Source: Candidatus Methanomethylicaceae archaeon
Lineage (GTDB): Archaea > Thermoproteota > Methanomethylicia > Methanomethylicales > Methanomethylicaceae
Assembly (NCBI GenBank): GCA_049970435.1
Contig: JBMFMY010000001.1
Location: 1-29,177, forward strand
Direction: 5' to 3'
DNA length: 29,177 nt
The first letter of the stretch is position 1; each line of letters starts with the position of its first letter. Of the stretch, positions 5,049 to 22,650 are shown piece by piece. Made by a program: the position numbers and the translations under genes. Below the pieces are notes generated by a model. The model was not told the origin of the DNA. It searched no databases and saw only the letters and a program-made list of their open reading frames with translations.

Positions 5049-6062
5049 TCAACTCAACAATACTTTCTGTTGAGAGAGCACTGACTTTAGAAGTGTGATT
5101 ATTTCGGAAACTGTGGATCCCTCGAGTACGGTTATCCCATAGAGAGGTGCGAGCTTTCTTGCACTCTCAGTCAACCTCGGCATGCAGACGAGTATGGTCT
5201 TTGCCGAGCTTGTATCCAGCACCTTCACGTAGGTGTTCAAAATAACCGATTCATTAATCGCCTCTTTAGAAGTTATCACATCGACAACGACGGCTCTGCC
5301 TGAGTTATCTATGCCGACGACGTCAAACGGGTGCATTGTTCCAGACTTACCAACTAGAGTCCCAGGGGAGTTCACGGTTAAACCTGCGGCTTTAAGTTCG
5401 TTCATTATCGGTCTTATGACAAGATGTTGCCGCAAGAACTCCTCCATAGCGGCTTTGTTCATTATAACACGAGGTACAGATGATATAACAAGCCCGTGAA
5501 CAGTAACCTCCTTTTTGCAGGTACTACACAAGTATGTGATCTTCGGCAGATCTGCTTGCCTGTAACAGATCAGACACCTGTACCACACCCCTATCGTCCT
5601 ATAATCTCTCCCTTCAACATTGAGTTTCGAGCCGCAACTTGGGCAAACCAAGGTGCCGGAAGGATCTTTAAACTTTGAAACGGGCCCTATGACGCCATCC
5701 CTAATATGCTCAAGCAGGAGCTCCTTGTAAAGCTGCGTTGAGTTGCAAAAAGGGCAATGGAAGTACACGCGAATGTGTTCGGAGCCGCAGTATGGGCACT
5801 TAAGGACTTGGTCATGGTATTCCGTCTTGCCAAGGCCGAGGGAGATCAATTTATTAATAATCTCGACCGTTTCCTGTGGGGTCGATTTGCAGCTCTTTAT
5901 TATATCTGGGTAAGTGTAGCCATACTGGAGATCGAACTCTGGCAGCAGGACATCCTTAGCCTCCCTCACCAAGTATTCAAACAGGCATACAAGCCGACTA
6001 TCGCTTACTATAGCATTGTAGTAAGACTGTGATGCTGGAGGTGAGGCCAATTTTTCCACCAA
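5049..6062 (-). CDS. TackOD1-type multi-zinc-ribbon protein with C-terminal Mrr/REase-like domain
   Basis: YGYTYP; CPYCGS, CPFCNS, LLEH, CPSCG, GRDYRTIG, CLIC, CSTC. C-terminal GKSGTMHPFDVV...AKTILVCMPRLTESARKLA resembles an Mrr_cat-like fold. Confidence 0.75.
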   Translation of the reverse strand: MVEKLASPPASQSYYNAIVSDSRLVCLFEYLVREAKDVLLPEFDLQYGYTYPDIIKSCKSTPQETVEIINKLISLGLGKTEYHDQVLKCPYCGSEHIRVYFHCPFCNSTQLYKELLLEHIRDGVIGPVSKFKDPSGTLVCPSCGSKLNVEGRDYRTIGVWYRCLICYRQADLPKITYLCSTCKKEVTVHGLVISSVPRVIMNKAAMEEFLRQHLVIRPIMNELKAAGLTVNSPGTLVGKSGTMHPFDVVGIDNSGRAVVVDVITSKEAINESVILNTYVKVLDTSSAKTILVCMPRLTESARKLAPLYGITVLEGSTVSEIITLLKSVLSQQKVLLS

Positions 6063-6157
6063 ACATTGTCGATATTACATGGAATTAGCTACTATTTTTC
6101 CCCTTTTTATATAAATATATCACTTATTACCATTTTTATCTCTACTTCACAAGAAGA

Positions 6158-6181
6158 CCCGTCCGCCAGGGCGGGGATCAC
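6158..6181 (+). mobile_element. solo IS200/IS605-type right-end hairpin (remnant)
   Basis: CCCGTCC-GCCA-GGGCGGG-GATCAC matches the CCCCGTCC-TTTA-GGGCGGG...TCAC ends at 13679-13705 and 21468-21496, with a different loop. Confidence 0.6.
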
Positions 6182-6424
6182 AATATTTTCTAAACCAAAC
6201 CAGAGTGGATAGTCTCTGAAACTCCATTTCTGAATTTTGCTCATTAAACTCAATGAACAATCTACCAGTTATGCTCTTCAATAAGCTTAGCCAAAGTTTT
6301 TCTATTATGGGGAGCCTAAAAGGGCAATGAAAAAACAGACCAATGAAAGTCCTAGAAGCAAGAACCTTCCAGCTTCAGCCGTGGAGAGTGTCAAAGGGCT
6401 GTATAAAGACTCCCTAACATATAG

Positions 6425-6496
6425 TGGACCGGGTGGGACTTGAACCCACGACCCCCTGCGTGCAAGGCAGGTGATCTGCCACTAATCTACCGGCCC
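6425..6496 (-). tRNA. tRNA-Ala(UGC), no intron, CCA not encoded
   Basis: Cloverleaf GGGCCGG/CCGGTCC with the G3:U70 Ala identity pair, anticodon loop CTTGCAC, T-arm GTGGG-TTCAAGT-CCCAC, discriminator A. Confidence 0.97.
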
Positions 6497-13402: not shown

Positions 13403-13408
13403 CTTTAA

Positions 13409-13705
13409 CTTCATCGGCAGGAAGCCCCCTTCTGTAATGGATGGGTGAAAGCCGAAAGACATACAACTTTTCTTGCCGCATATACCTTCACGGATGCGGG
13501 GAGTGGTCACCCCTAAAGCACCTCTGCGCTGGTGATACGAGGTCCGACGCTGGTCCTCTGCCCAAACTGAGAGTTGCCGATGAGGGCAAGTCCTGCGGAT
13601 GGGGCAGAGTAGATACCCTAAAAGGAAGTTCAGAAACGCTCCCCGAGCATTGTAAGAGTAACTAAAGAAAAGTGGAAGCCCCGTCCTTTAGGGCGGGGAG
13701 GTCAC
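13409..13705 (+). mobile_element. non-autonomous IS200/IS605-family mini-element, copy 1 (LE hairpin + omegaRNA-like core + RE)
   Basis: Preceded by TTTAA; LE TCGGC...GCCGA stem; RE CCCCGTCC-TTTA-GGGCGGGG-AG-GTCAC; homologous to 21213-21496; no TIR or TSD. Confidence 0.85.
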
Positions 13706-13775
13706 CCTTGAACCTTGATACCTAAACCTCAAACTTCAAACCTCAAACCCTAAACCCAAAACTCTAAAACCTAAA
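13706..13775 (+). repeat. ten consecutive degenerate 7-nt units (consensus ~CCTCAAA/CCCTAAA)
   Basis: CCTTGAA CCTTGAT ACCTAAA CCTCAAA CTTCAAA CCTCAAA CCCTAAA CCCAAAA CTCTAAA ACCTAAA, in strict 7-nt phase. Confidence 0.85.
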
Positions 13776-13862
13776 CCAAAACATTAATCCTTACTCTTGA
13801 TTAAAAACTCCCTTAAAACTCAAATCTTAACACTTTTATTGGTAAATCTACGACTTCAACTC

Positions 13863-19930: not shown

Positions 19931-20167
19931 ATGCCCACCATTAGAGACGTTCTAAACAAGATCAGGTGGACCTCCAAAGATGGCTTAACGGGTGTGGAGG
20001 TCGTCATACTACACAGGGGGGCACCTGATGACAGGAAGGTGATAAGGGGGGAGGAGATAAGGGACGTTGCCCCAAGGGCTATAATATGCGAGGATGTGGT
20101 CATCCCTTACCACAGGGTCTTATGTATAAGGAGGGGTGAAGAGATCATCTGGAGGCGATCGAGATGA
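19931..20167 (+). CDS. DUF504/UPF0248 (MJ1316-like RNA-repair-associated domain) protein
   Basis: IRDVLNKIRW, HRGAPDDRKVI, IPYHRV...GEEIIW; overlaps the next gene by 4 nt. Confidence 0.88.
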   Translation: MPTIRDVLNKIRWTSKDGLTGVEVVILHRGAPDDRKVIRGEEIRDVAPRAIICEDVVIPYHRVLCIRRGEEIIWRRSR

Positions 20168-21177
20168 GGCAGCCATTCGAGAACATACCCACGGTCCTCA
20201 CTGCGGAGGAACTCATTAACAAGTCACTACGCGAGGCAACGAGGGCGGAGGTGTCCATGCCGCAGAGGATGCCTGCCATATTGAAGGCGAAGAGGAGGGA
20301 GGCTGCCAGGATCAAAACTGCGGAGAGGATCTCTGCTGGCTACCTCGAGCACCTTGTCAAGTCCTTCCCTTCCATAGAGAAGATCCACCCTTTCTACAGG
20401 GATGTGCTGGAGATAACCTTCGGGGTAGCTAATACAAGATCCCTTCTCGGTAGGATCAGCAGGACCTCTAGGATAATCAGGGAGATCAGCAGATCCTCCA
20501 CCTCAAGCCTAAAGCGCGTCTCAACGCCAAGCGAAGCCGCGAAAGTGAGGAGGTCCTTTATGGGTCGCCTCTCATCCCTCATCAGGGAGTTAGAAAACGA
20601 TCTTATCACACTCTCCTCCATCAGGGAGAAAATGAAGGATCTGCCAGCCGCGGATCCCGATCTGCCAACTGTGATCCTTGCTGGATATCCAGGAGTGGGG
20701 AAATCTACGATAGTGAGCGCGATCTCTTCGGCCAAGCCAGAGGTCCGGTCTTATCCCTTCACAACAAAGGAGGTTATGATCGGACACGTCGAGGTCAATG
20801 GCAGGCGGTTGCAGATTGTAGACACCCCTGGACTGCTGGACAGACCTCTCGAGAAGAGGAGCCAGACCGAACTACTCGCCATATCGGCGCTGAGCCATCT
20901 GCCAGGACCAGTAGCATTCATTGTCGATGTCTCAGAGTCGAATGGCTTCACACTTCAGGATCAGCGGTCCCTCTACGAAGATCTTAAGAAAACCCTGAGC
21001 TCAAACAAGTTTCTCACGTTCTTCAACAAGACAGACATATCGACGCCCTCCCAGATCGCCTCAGCAGAATCAATATTTGGCCCATGCACAAAGATGGCTG
21101 CGACAAAGGGTCAGGGGCTCGAAGAGTTCATAAACGAGGTCATGAGAGCTGTAGAAGGCCACCAAAATTGCAAATAA
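20164..21177 (+). CDS. NOG1-family (nucleolar GTP-binding-like) GTPase
   Basis: PFENIPTV, IHPFYRD, GYPGVGKST, SYPFTTK, IVDTPGLLDRP, NKTD. Confidence 0.92.
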   Translation: MRQPFENIPTVLTAEELINKSLREATRAEVSMPQRMPAILKAKRREAARIKTAERISAGYLEHLVKSFPSIEKIHPFYRDVLEITFGVANTRSLLGRISRTSRIIREISRSSTSSLKRVSTPSEAAKVRRSFMGRLSSLIRELENDLITLSSIREKMKDLPAADPDLPTVILAGYPGVGKSTIVSAISSAKPEVRSYPFTTKEVMIGHVEVNGRRLQIVDTPGLLDRPLEKRSQTELLAISALSHLPGPVAFIVDVSESNGFTLQDQRSLYEDLKKTLSSNKFLTFFNKTDISTPSQIASAESIFGPCTKMAATKGQGLEEFINEVMRAVEGHQNCK

Positions 21178-21212
21178 TTGTCTCTAAAAGTGTCGTTCAG
21201 CGAACTGATTAA

Positions 21213-21496
21213 CTTTGTCGGCGGGAAGTCCCCTTCCGTAAGGGTGGGGATGAGAGCCGAAAATTAATCTCTTCTTGCCGCATATCTTCACAGATGCATG
21301 GATCCCTAAGGCGCCTCTGCGCTGGTGATATGAGGTCCAACGCTGGGCCTCCGTAACTGTATGGATCGAGCCCTACGGACAGAGCAGGAACCTCGCCCCT
21401 TAAAAAAAGGGAAAATTCAGAAACGCTCCCAAAGCGCTGTTAGGGAGTAACTAAAGAAAAGTGGAATCCCCGTCCTTTAGGGCGGGAGGAGATCAC
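21213..21496 (+). mobile_element. non-autonomous IS200/IS605-family mini-element, copy 2
   Basis: Preceded by ATTAA; LE TCGGC-...CCCCTTCC-GTAA-GGGTGGGG...-GCCGA; RE CCCCGTCC-TTTA-GGGCGGG...GATCAC; exact blocks of 14-22 nt shared with copy 1. Confidence 0.85.
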
Positions 21497-21633
21497 TATA
21501 AACACTCATCAATAAGCTAGGAGAGTTGTTATAAAAAGATTTATGCAGAAATAACACGTAAAGTTAAATTACATAGACATCAAAAACTGGGGGCTATCTT
21601 CTCCACTTTTGGTTTTCGGATTTGTTAGAGGAA

Positions 21634-22650
21634 CTACGTTCTCCGAACCAACAAACTAAAAGCAAAAAAGACGAGCGAAAACGTTCCTAAGTAAACAGTT
21701 AAAATATACGCAACATCGCTTATCATAGCGAAATGGGGTGGTAGCATCATTGCCAGAGATAAAGCGCTCCAGTAGTAGTTAAAGAACCAGTGCAATAGAA
21801 CCGCACTGTCAAAGCCATATCTCACCGAGCAGTATCCTATTACCAGTCCTGCGAAGAATGTGGATGGAATCTTTCCCAAACCCCAAGTCCCATACAACAT
21901 ATGGGCGTAAGAGAACATTGATGATGATATTAGAATTAATAATACTTCCAACACTCTTAACCCTTGGTCTGGTTTGAAGCCGATCCTCCTTTGATAAGAC
22001 TCTGGCTTCAACATCGCAACGAAGATCATGAAGACCAGAGATCTTTTACTCACCCCCCTGAGAAGACGCCTCGTCTTAATCAACACGTAGACTGCCACTG
22101 GTAAGAGTATCGGCACCAACCTAAACCCAATCTCCTCCGATATTGCAGCATATGAGAGTGTGAAGATCTCAGAAAATGGATCGGTAAAAGAAGGGCCTCC
22201 CACACTTACCCCTGCCTTTTCCTCAAGGAGGTTTAGCGCAGTTGTTAGTAGCAGAGTCGCAGAGGTTATTCCAGGCATAACTGCCAAGAAGTTCCTTTTG
22301 GCTAACCCAACCCTGCCCTCTGTTAACATGAGTTTAATCGAAGAATGCCAGCGCTCGTTAGAAAAAAATGCCGTCAAAAAAGCGAGAGCGAATATGCCAT
22401 TTAGTAGTAAGAAAATCTCCGATGCCTTTACATCAAGTTGAACACTCACACTCCAGAAGTAAAGTGCGTTAATTTTGAGGATCTTGTAACTTTGACTCGC
22501 AAAAGAGCTCCCCTCAGGCGAAAAGAACGCATAGAGCGCAGAAACAAATGCCAACAAATATGTAATGGTGACTATCAATGCTAATATGCCATAGAACGAA
22601 GCTAAAATTCTGTTGCAGTCATAATCTGATTTTACCATCACAATACCCAT
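21634..22650 (-). CDS. CPBP/Abi (CAAX type II) family intramembrane metalloprotease
   Basis: SEEIGFR, FSYAH, AVLLHWFFN motifs; multiple TM segments. Confidence 0.85.
   Translation of the reverse strand: MGIVMVKSDYDCNRILASFYGILALIVTITYLLAFVSALYAFFSPEGSSFASQSYKILKINALYFWSVSVQLDVKASEIFLLLNGIFALAFLTAFFSNERWHSSIKLMLTEGRVGLAKRNFLAVMPGITSATLLLTTALNLLEEKAGVSVGGPSFTDPFSEIFTLSYAAISEEIGFRLVPILLPVAVYVLIKTRRLLRGVSKRSLVFMIFVAMLKPESYQRRIGFKPDQGLRVLEVLLILISSSMFSYAHMLYGTWGLGKIPSTFFAGLVIGYCSVRYGFDSAVLLHWFFNYYWSALSLAMMLPPHFAMISDVAYILTVYLGTFSLVFFAFSLLVRRT

Follow-up and report, generated by a model that had tools for sequence, protein, structure and literature searches.

The DNA examined here, which we will call the window, is a stretch of 29,177 nucleotides (nt) from contig JBMFMY010000001.1 of a Candidatus Methanomethylicaceae genome, G000, which comprises 1.40 Mb in 316 contigs and is 87% complete; coordinates given without another name are those of the window. 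We will focus on a 284-nt element at 21213..21496 on the + strand, termed copy 2, which lies 35 nt past the stop of a co-oriented NOG1-type GTPase gene (20164..21177, +; Pfam NOG1_N 7.2e-34, MMR_HSR1 9.6e-18, NOG1 9.4e-15), itself outside the element. No open reading frame (ORF) of at least 60 amino acids (aa) overlaps it, and the next gene to the right is on the other strand (21634..22650, -). A preliminary description of this DNA had seen in it the second co-oriented copy of a protein-free mini-element of the IS200/IS605 type, and the sequence, the alignments and a profile built from whole copies (nhmmer, profile positions 1-291, 305.5 bits) agree with it on the boundaries and the architecture, as do the coordinates and the Pfam matches on the position behind NOG1. 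The explanation that we favor, with a probability of about 0.6, is that copy 2 belongs to a high-copy family of miniature inverted-repeat transposable elements (MITEs) resembling the palindrome-associated transposable elements (PATEs), and that its 3' part is a putative omegaRNA-like module.

The element is almost certainly a non-autonomous member of the IS200/IS605 family, since its left end (LE) equals that of copies that carry both TnpA and TnpB, and its right end (RE) has the hairpin and the TCAC word of local tnpB elements. Indeed, domain searches of the genome gave 45 matches to the TnpB Zn-ribbon and 11 to Y1 TnpA. At C17, this left end (TTTTAAC|TTTATCGGCGGGAAGTCCCC...GCCGAAAAGC) stands before a Y1_Tnp ORF of 127 aa (1e-40), behind which comes an OrfB_IS605 ORF (3.5e-29) cut off by the end of the contig; longer elements at C53, C50 and C153 open in the same way. 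In the closed genome of a relative, G006, a complete IS605 has this LE, then tnpA, tnpB and a right end reading ...GAAGCAGGAAGCCC-hairpin-GGGGTAGTTCAC. The right ends of many tnpB elements in G000 read GGAAGCCCC-hairpin-GGGG-TAG-TTCAC, or are of a second type that ends in GTGTCAA; the mini-element has the hairpin type and the TCAC word in common with them, but not the tail. A TnpA encoded elsewhere would mobilise the element, and the evidence for this is the presence and absence of the element between strains described below.

The family has about 40 copies in G000, of 284-345 nt each. A genome search with the sequence of copy 2 gave 43 matches (78 blastn pieces), and nhmmer with the whole-copy profile gave 79 matches at E<=0.01. 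Of these, 18 span the whole element within a contig, and most of the remainder either run off a contig end or consist of the LE only. Copies cut by contig ends predominate, so the assembler broke at this repeat. Across all copies the homology starts at TTAA and stops at TCAC, and the flanks beyond are unrelated. TTAA directly precedes 42 of the 43 left ends, TCAC is final in 38 of the 39 right ends (GGTCAC in 34 of them), and the 39 right flanks are mutually unrelated and do not repeat the TTAA, which indicates that no target-site duplication is made. The target of the family is TTTAA/TTAA: TTAA is preceded by T at 37 left ends, by G at 3, by C at 1 and by A at only 2, one of which is copy 2, so that the target WTTAA proposed from two copies is not borne out.

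Copy 1 (13405-13705) stands directly after an intron-bearing tRNA-Arg and is followed at 13706-13800 by low-complexity CTAAAC/CTCAAAC-like units (ACCTAAACCTCAAACTTCAAACCTCAAACCCTAAACC...). Copy 2 had been taken for a diverged copy of copy 1. The two are indeed 73% identical, but copy 2 is 88-91% identical to the copies of C122, C28 and C8, and these alignments place it in a separate subfamily whose middle arm is short, rather than making it a diverged sister of copy 1. Two (C/U)GAUGA words, at about 21324-21332 of copy 2 (GGUGAUAUGAGG) and in the long arm of subfamily B (CCGAUGAGGG), are reminiscent of the K-turn/box C motifs bound by archaeal L7Ae. Elsewhere in the family, a solo LE or a second LE hairpin is found directly before a whole copy at C63:3140-3530 and C52:6439-6775 of G000, in a nested or tandem arrangement, and the right flank at C39:77 opens with another TTAAC and left end; the elements seem to insert beside or into one another.

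Both ends of copy 2 carry subterminal hairpins, the LE and RE being unlike each other and without terminal inverted repeats. On the left, the target or transposon-adjacent motif (TAM) ATTAA (21208..21212, core TTAA at 21209-21212) precedes an LE hairpin at 21218..21260, in which an outer stem pairs TCGGC (21218-21222) with GCCGA (21256-21260) and encloses an inner stem of CCCCTTCC (21230-21237), a GTAA loop and GGGTGGGG (21242-21249). As single-stranded DNA (ssDNA) this end folds at -9.4 kcal/mol (z -2.13; 6 of 200 shuffles fold equally well). The preliminary description had called this hairpin cleaner, which is true by comparison with copy 1; it is nevertheless weaker than the family consensus, with one T.T mismatch and one T.G pair in the inner stem. 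Over the 21 whole copies of our first alignment (A1), 88.5% of the cells of the LE helices pair, versus 33-58% with slid partners. Just behind the hairpin, the alignments have an A+T-rich box (AAAATTAAT, 21260..21268), which reads ATATATAAAT in 6 of the 21 aligned copies and TTTATATAT in the full IS605 of C53, and which is a possible archaeal TATA box. On the right, the terminal hairpin T (CCCCGTCC-TTTA-GGGCGGG, 21468..21486) is followed by the tail AGGAGATCAC (21487..21496; family consensus GGAGGAGGTCAC), so that copy 2 terminates in ...CCCCGTCCTTTAGGGCGGGAGGAGATCAC with TCAC as its final word.

Empty sites and the split flanks of copy 2

Four hot-spring metagenome runs were compared with positions 20700-22000 of the window, and one of them, X4, contains a strain in which the flanks of copy 2 are found without the element. 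A 7.2-kb contig of this run (record 19) is 92.8% identical to the window over 20700-21210 (37 differing letters out of 511) and then diverges, to continue as the DNA that lies directly 3' of the TCAC of another copy of G000, that of C183 (25 of 28 letters, from the first base). In a second X4 contig, of 24.8 kb, the right flank of copy 2 is preceded by ...CAGCTTTAA, with TTTAA joined directly to TATAAAC...; the left flank of that contig was not found in G000. In the X4 strain both sites are thus empty; their junctions fall precisely at TTAA| and TCAC|, and this confirms both where the element ends and that it once inserted. The 24.8-kb contig also holds 3734 extra letters between the positions corresponding to 21537 and 21639, by insertion there or deletion here.

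Gene order in relatives points in the same direction. The closest GTDB relatives could be used for gene order only, as their NOG1 is just 69-78% identical and their intergenic DNA unalignable. Beside the right end of the C183 copy lies a 351-aa ORF, unrelated to the right-hand gene of the window, whose orthologues (81-83% identity) immediately follow the NOG1 orthologue in convergent orientation; this neighbourhood is present in three of the five NOG1 loci fetched from relatives (L079, L080, L082), the other two loci ending earlier. The right-hand gene of the window is found in relatives on contigs other than that of NOG1. Judged by these comparisons, the repeat in the G000 contig evidently bridges the left flank of one ancestral site and the right flank of a different one. 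This is due either to recombination between two copies or to a chimeric assembly, at about even odds, leaning towards misassembly.

For annotation, this means that the contig runs through a 284-nt repeat of about 40 copies, here with flanks that were ancestrally separate, and that the gene order at 21.2-21.5 kb, as well as any guide read there, is untrustworthy without read-pair or long-read support. The empty allele GAACTGATTAA|TATAAACACTC, which had been predicted for metagenome reads, is not to be expected, as the two flanks come from two sites. The 16 nt past the element (TATAAACACTCATCAA, 21497..21512) had likewise been proposed as its guide; they do adjoin the element in the contig, but they may belong to another copy or to a chimeric join, and the guide of the NOG1-side copy may be the C183 flank instead.

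Searches with these flanks returned little. The 16 nt match only themselves in G000 at up to 2 mismatches; TTAA followed by these 16 nt, which it had been suggested to look for in viral contigs, gave 0 matches there, as did the right-end motif. Pattern scans of JGI metagenome contigs with the right flank of the window and with the 30-letter loose end from X4 gave 0 matches each. When the 39 flanks of the family were searched against G000, 0 exact second sites were found, and none of the 62 other matches with 1-2 mismatches is directly preceded by TTAA, which fits guides that are simply flanks.

The 3' module and its relation to tnpB genes

The last 164 nt of copy 2 (21333..21496, +) form a conserved RNA-like module, putatively a scaffold of the omegaRNA type, which a covariance model of it (R1) matches at 159.1 bits. 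We examined it in an alignment of 27 copies of the module (A2), 6 of which come from other phyla. Three helices, P1, S and T, were counted there: 93.0% of their 543 cells pair, versus 48-55% with slid partners, and 25 cells have changed on both sides, a number reached by 0 of 500 shuffles. Helix P1 is long-range. Its 5' strand (GGCCTCC, 21346..21352) pairs with GGAGATC at 21488-21494, the family pairing being GGCCUCC with GGAGGUC, two bases before the boundary, and 93.5% of its cells are paired over the 27 sequences. Helix S (21425..21448) pairs GCTCCC (21425-21430) with GGGAGT (21443-21448); it is 91.3% paired, and both partners are replaced in two of its six pairs (U-A to G-C/C-G, in 5 sequences). 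The terminal hairpin T is 93.8% paired, with changes on both sides in three of its eight pairs (10, 8 and 1 cells). P1 has a competitor in a local hairpin, H4 (21333-21351), whose pairing is less consistent (17 of 26 cells at two positions). The fold of 21262-21496 as RNA reaches z -2.96 on the + strand and -2.06 on the - strand. The alignment of the middle of the element is uncertain: the consensus that RNAalifold derived there from plain MAFFT alignments was poor, and a brute-force scan for covarying helices returned mostly low-complexity artefacts.

The module is thus conserved and partly covarying, and it ends exactly at the right boundary in all copies. The preliminary description had read selection on structure in the differences between copy 1 and copy 2, said to be concentrated in loops and in one variable arm. 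Such selection is supported at the level of the family, where helices are kept with compensatory changes, but this pair alone does not establish it: stem columns do differ less often (13 of 67 versus 86 of 249 elsewhere, Fisher p 0.018), but the stem changes of copy 1 are disruptive and not compensatory, and the variable arm is the difference between subfamilies.

The module appears partly homologous to the 3' ends of tnpB genes. Against the 35 tnpB 3' regions of G000, its profile gave 10 short matches, confined to two blocks: positions 11-63 match the tnpB 3' ends of C96, C59 and C2 (...GCCUC..GGCAAGCC..GAUGAAGCAGGAA), and positions 131-162, which are the terminal hairpin, match several tnpB right ends. 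Likewise, R1 gave 56 matches in G000, among which those linked to tnpB span the terminal hairpin only.

Beyond G000, the module is found in gene-less elements. Out of 151 genomes of the phylum (G000 included), 7 have R1 matches, and among 12 loci inspected from the other genomes, 10 have an LE hairpin within 200 nt upstream and 0 have a tnpB ORF; the 8 neighbouring ORFs of at least 120 aa encode CitG, a prefoldin, deoxyhypusine synthase, DUF996, a methyltransferase and three proteins without a family. Some of these loci belong to other mini-element families, with different left ends and the module in common, the latter reading GGAAC..hairpin..CUUCC..AAAC..helix..GAAGGAAAAGYUGGAAGCYCC-hairpin-GGAGRGGASGUCAC. 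A motif scan over one genome per species gave 15 loci, in metagenome-assembled genomes (MAGs) titled Hadesarchaea/Hadarchaeota, Ca. Methanomethylicota, Nitrososphaeria/Nitrososphaerota and Bathyarchaeia. Among these loci are 7 gene-less elements that are whole and 2 that are internal and partial, with no tnpB-sized ORF upstream; the rest are cut by contig ends. In particular, the same interior recurs in whole elements, 270-345 nt long, from MAGs titled Hadesarchaea/Hadarchaeota, Methanomethylicota and Nitrososphaerota. In these comparisons, the interior appears conserved beyond what TnpA would need. The part that separates the two tnpB-like blocks, common to mini-element families with different left ends, can be written GGAAC..hairpin..CUUCC..AAAC..helix S..GAAGGAAAAGUGGAAGCCCC, and we will refer to it as the extra domain.

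Other elements of G000 have related ends. IS1341-like tnpB copies lie beside tRNA genes at C2:13981-15800 (-) and C32:7543-7860 (+), and, among sequences linked to tnpB, their right end (...AAGTGGGAAGCTCCC-hairpin-GGAGAGGACGTCAC) matches the tail of the mini-element most closely. A second family of mini-elements, each about 330 nt long (C9:5251-5584, C3:13212-13547, C10:6363-6676, C66:3665-4002) has the apparent target TTTATC, an interior homologous to the 3' end of tnpB of the C93/C21 type, and the tail GGAGGA(G/C)GTCAC; it contains an extra block between GCTGGAA and the terminal hairpin, as does the family of copy 2. In the window itself, what looks like a third and different gene-less mini-element lies at 6141-6395 (+), between an ORF with a TackOD1 domain (5049-6062) and a tRNA-Ala (6424-6496). 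Preceded by TTTATC, its LE hairpin (GAAGACCCGTCCGCCAGGGCGGGG) matches left ends of the second family (C9, C10, C24, C66), and its right end (...GCCGTGGAGAGTGTCAA) matches those of tnpB elements of the C5/C254/C32 type.

Possible roles of the module

The mechanism that we propose connects the element to proteins encoded elsewhere in the genome. TnpA from the IS605 copies would excise and insert the element as ssDNA through its two hairpins, while its 3' 164 nt would be transcribed on the + strand, from the A+T-rich box behind the left end or by read-through from NOG1. The transcript would be an omegaRNA-like RNA, whose 3' extension, copied from the flanking DNA, would be its guide. Guided by this RNA, a TnpB made elsewhere could then cleave the site left vacant (TTTAA and flank), and the element would be copied back by recombination and so retained. 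That the module acts as RNA at all is, in our view, probable; that this RNA guides a TnpB in trans is a more tentative proposal, drawn from sequence, to which we would give slightly less than even odds.

Several observations weigh against this explanation. The aligned sequences are related copies, so the shuffle controls overstate the support for the helices. In P1, all changes are one-sided (G-U/A-U, C-G/U-G) and none affects both sides, and copy 2 itself has a private G-to-A change at 21492 that breaks one P1 pair. The covariation of hairpin T is ambiguous, as it is equally expected if T is read only by TnpA, as DNA. The LE helices hardly covary (3 cells, a number that 79 of 500 shuffles attain), and the T.T mismatch that weakens the LE stem of copy 2 recurs in two other copies. 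The 70 nt or so between the two tnpB-like blocks (A2 columns ~101-190, 21393-21460 in copy 2, helix S included) have no tnpB-linked counterpart among the regions compared, and no tnpB gene carrying the whole module was found in G000, in the 150 other genomes of the phylum or at the 15 motif-scan loci. To this we must add the uncertainty of the guide of copy 2, and the fact that every match of G000 to the RNA family HgcC stays under the gathering score of 50.

The element could also be purely selfish, with no RNA role whatsoever: TnpA needs only the hairpin ends, and the interior would be the relic of a lost tnpB 3' end, kept by recent bursts and by transfer between hot-spring archaea. The 73-91% identity between copies of the same genome fits such a recent spread, the strongest covariation is in the RE hairpin, which TnpA would read as DNA, and a full scaffold linked to tnpB is missing from the genomes searched. 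We nonetheless consider this rather unlikely, because helix S lies outside the end hairpins and yet keeps its pairing through changes on both sides, and because the interior, including the part of about 70 nt, is kept across MAGs titled as different phyla and across families with other left ends. The G-U and U-G variants of P1 would fit an RNA of the + strand only, although they prove little. Much less can be said for the idea that the repeat is simply a 3' untranslated region or terminator of NOG1, repeated by chance. It is true that the element is G+C-rich, folded and placed 35 nt past a co-oriented stop, but the same element occurs in dozens of unrelated contexts, and the NOG1 orthologues of three relatives and of the X4 strain do without it; these empty orthologous sites refute this idea in practice, and its probability is close to nil.

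A different role for the RNA is conceivable, in which the transposable cassette would carry a stable small RNA like HgcC, acting for the host or for the element apart from TnpB guidance, for example in the regulation of transposition or of neighbour genes. Rfam at its gathering scores reports nothing in 21100-21650, and only two tRNAs in the whole window. Below these scores, HgcC gives weak but consistent matches in all copies (35 in G000 at E<=1, nearly all in this family; 13-31 bits, the best 30.9), that of copy 2 covering 21332-21507 at 17.0 bits, and the 3' hairpin and GAGGAGGUCA tail of the element are almost the HgcC consensus. Moreover, PMC4615843 reports that over-expression of a PATE-derived RNA changed the growth of Halobacterium. 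The same source gives the function of HgcC itself as unknown; besides the scores, two further points stand against an HgcC-like role, namely that the module stops precisely at the boundary of the transposon, which is also where omegaRNA scaffolds stop, and that the search of G000 gave no second match preceded by TTAA for any of the 39 flanks, so that no target in trans is seen. We hold such a role to be very unlikely.

The putative omegaRNA-like reading can be extended further. The gene-less elements might not be mere deletion relics, but a separate, horizontally spreading lineage of transposons reduced to their guide, whose RNA would have gained the extra domain of some 70-90 nt; the orphan HgcC RNAs of hyperthermophiles would fall into this class too. 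With the extra domain, the RNA could be produced, kept stable or loaded onto a TnpB in trans with no need for co-translational processing of a tnpB mRNA. We judge this extension unlikely. Should the extra domain turn out to be restricted to gene-less elements, it would reveal how guide RNAs can break free from their nuclease gene, and it would provide the HgcC family with a function. In any case, G000, where TnpB has 45 matches, TnpA has 11 and the mini-elements form at least three families, is a dense natural test bed for the use of guide RNAs in trans.

Comparison with known systems

Short gene-less repeats that bear hairpins and are mobilised by a Y1-type protein encoded elsewhere are known in bacteria as REPINs, with their RAYT proteins. 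Our element corresponds to this description in being short, gene-less and hairpin-bearing, with a putative Y1-type partner encoded elsewhere. However, REPINs are inverted doublets of REP sequences served by a domesticated RAYT, whereas the element has the asymmetric LE and RE of a true IS605, a TTAA target and a long structured interior. REPIN/RAYT systems are also mentioned in passages of PMC4615843.

The closest parallel is with PATEs, which are described, in passages of PMC4615843 and PMC10055086, as gene-less derivatives of IS200/IS605 in haloarchaea and in Geobacillus stearothermophilus. According to the second of these sources, a preprint, in the passages concerned, they often encode omegaRNAs that TnpB would use in trans, and a PATE with the ends of an IStron is mentioned in part of another source (10.1101/2023.11.20.567912). 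Like them, copy 2 has no ORF, has subterminal LE and RE hairpins in common with TnpA/TnpB elements of the same genome, exists in many copies and has an RE sequence of the omegaRNA type. Its family differs from them in that about 70 additional nt, comprising helix S with its flanks, separate the terminal hairpin from the tnpB-derived block, a stretch met at none of the tnpB-linked right ends compared, and in that its elements of 284-345 nt recur almost without change across MAGs whose titles name several archaeal phyla.

With respect to the omegaRNAs of TnpB themselves (also called reRNAs, in IS200/IS605 and IS1341-type elements), the module has the same place, at the 3' end up to the RE boundary and on the strand of tnpB in full elements, with a terminal hairpin just before a flank-derived putative guide and apparent partial homology to tnpB 3' ends; the TTTAA next to the left end of the element would serve as TAM. 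The differences are that tnpB is absent in cis and that the tail is GGAGGAGGTCAC, versus GGGGTAGTTCAC in the IS605 copies with the same left end.

As for HgcC (Rfam RF00062), found in Methanocaldococcus and other hyperthermophiles, the resemblance lies in a 5' hairpin with a CUGAC loop, a 3' hairpin CCCCGCCC-UUUA-GGGCGGGG and the tail GAGGAGGUCA, and the difference in insertions of 24 and 45 nt in copy 2 relative to the model. Passages of PMC4615843 link HgcC to the right-end tetraloop of IS1341, a motif which it has in common with the PATE-derived RNA, and describe right ends that are transcribed. Our literature search for HgcC together with TnpB returned one 2015 paper only, and that for TnpB, MITEs and archaea nothing closer.

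Gene-less IS200/IS605 elements with a guide-RNA-like tail are therefore already known, and copy 2 is a clean example of them. What may be new is an extra domain confined to gene-less elements and spread over MAGs titled as several phyla, together with its tie to HgcC; what is also new is the recombinant or chimeric nature of the flanks of copy 2, brought out by a related metagenome strain and three relatives.

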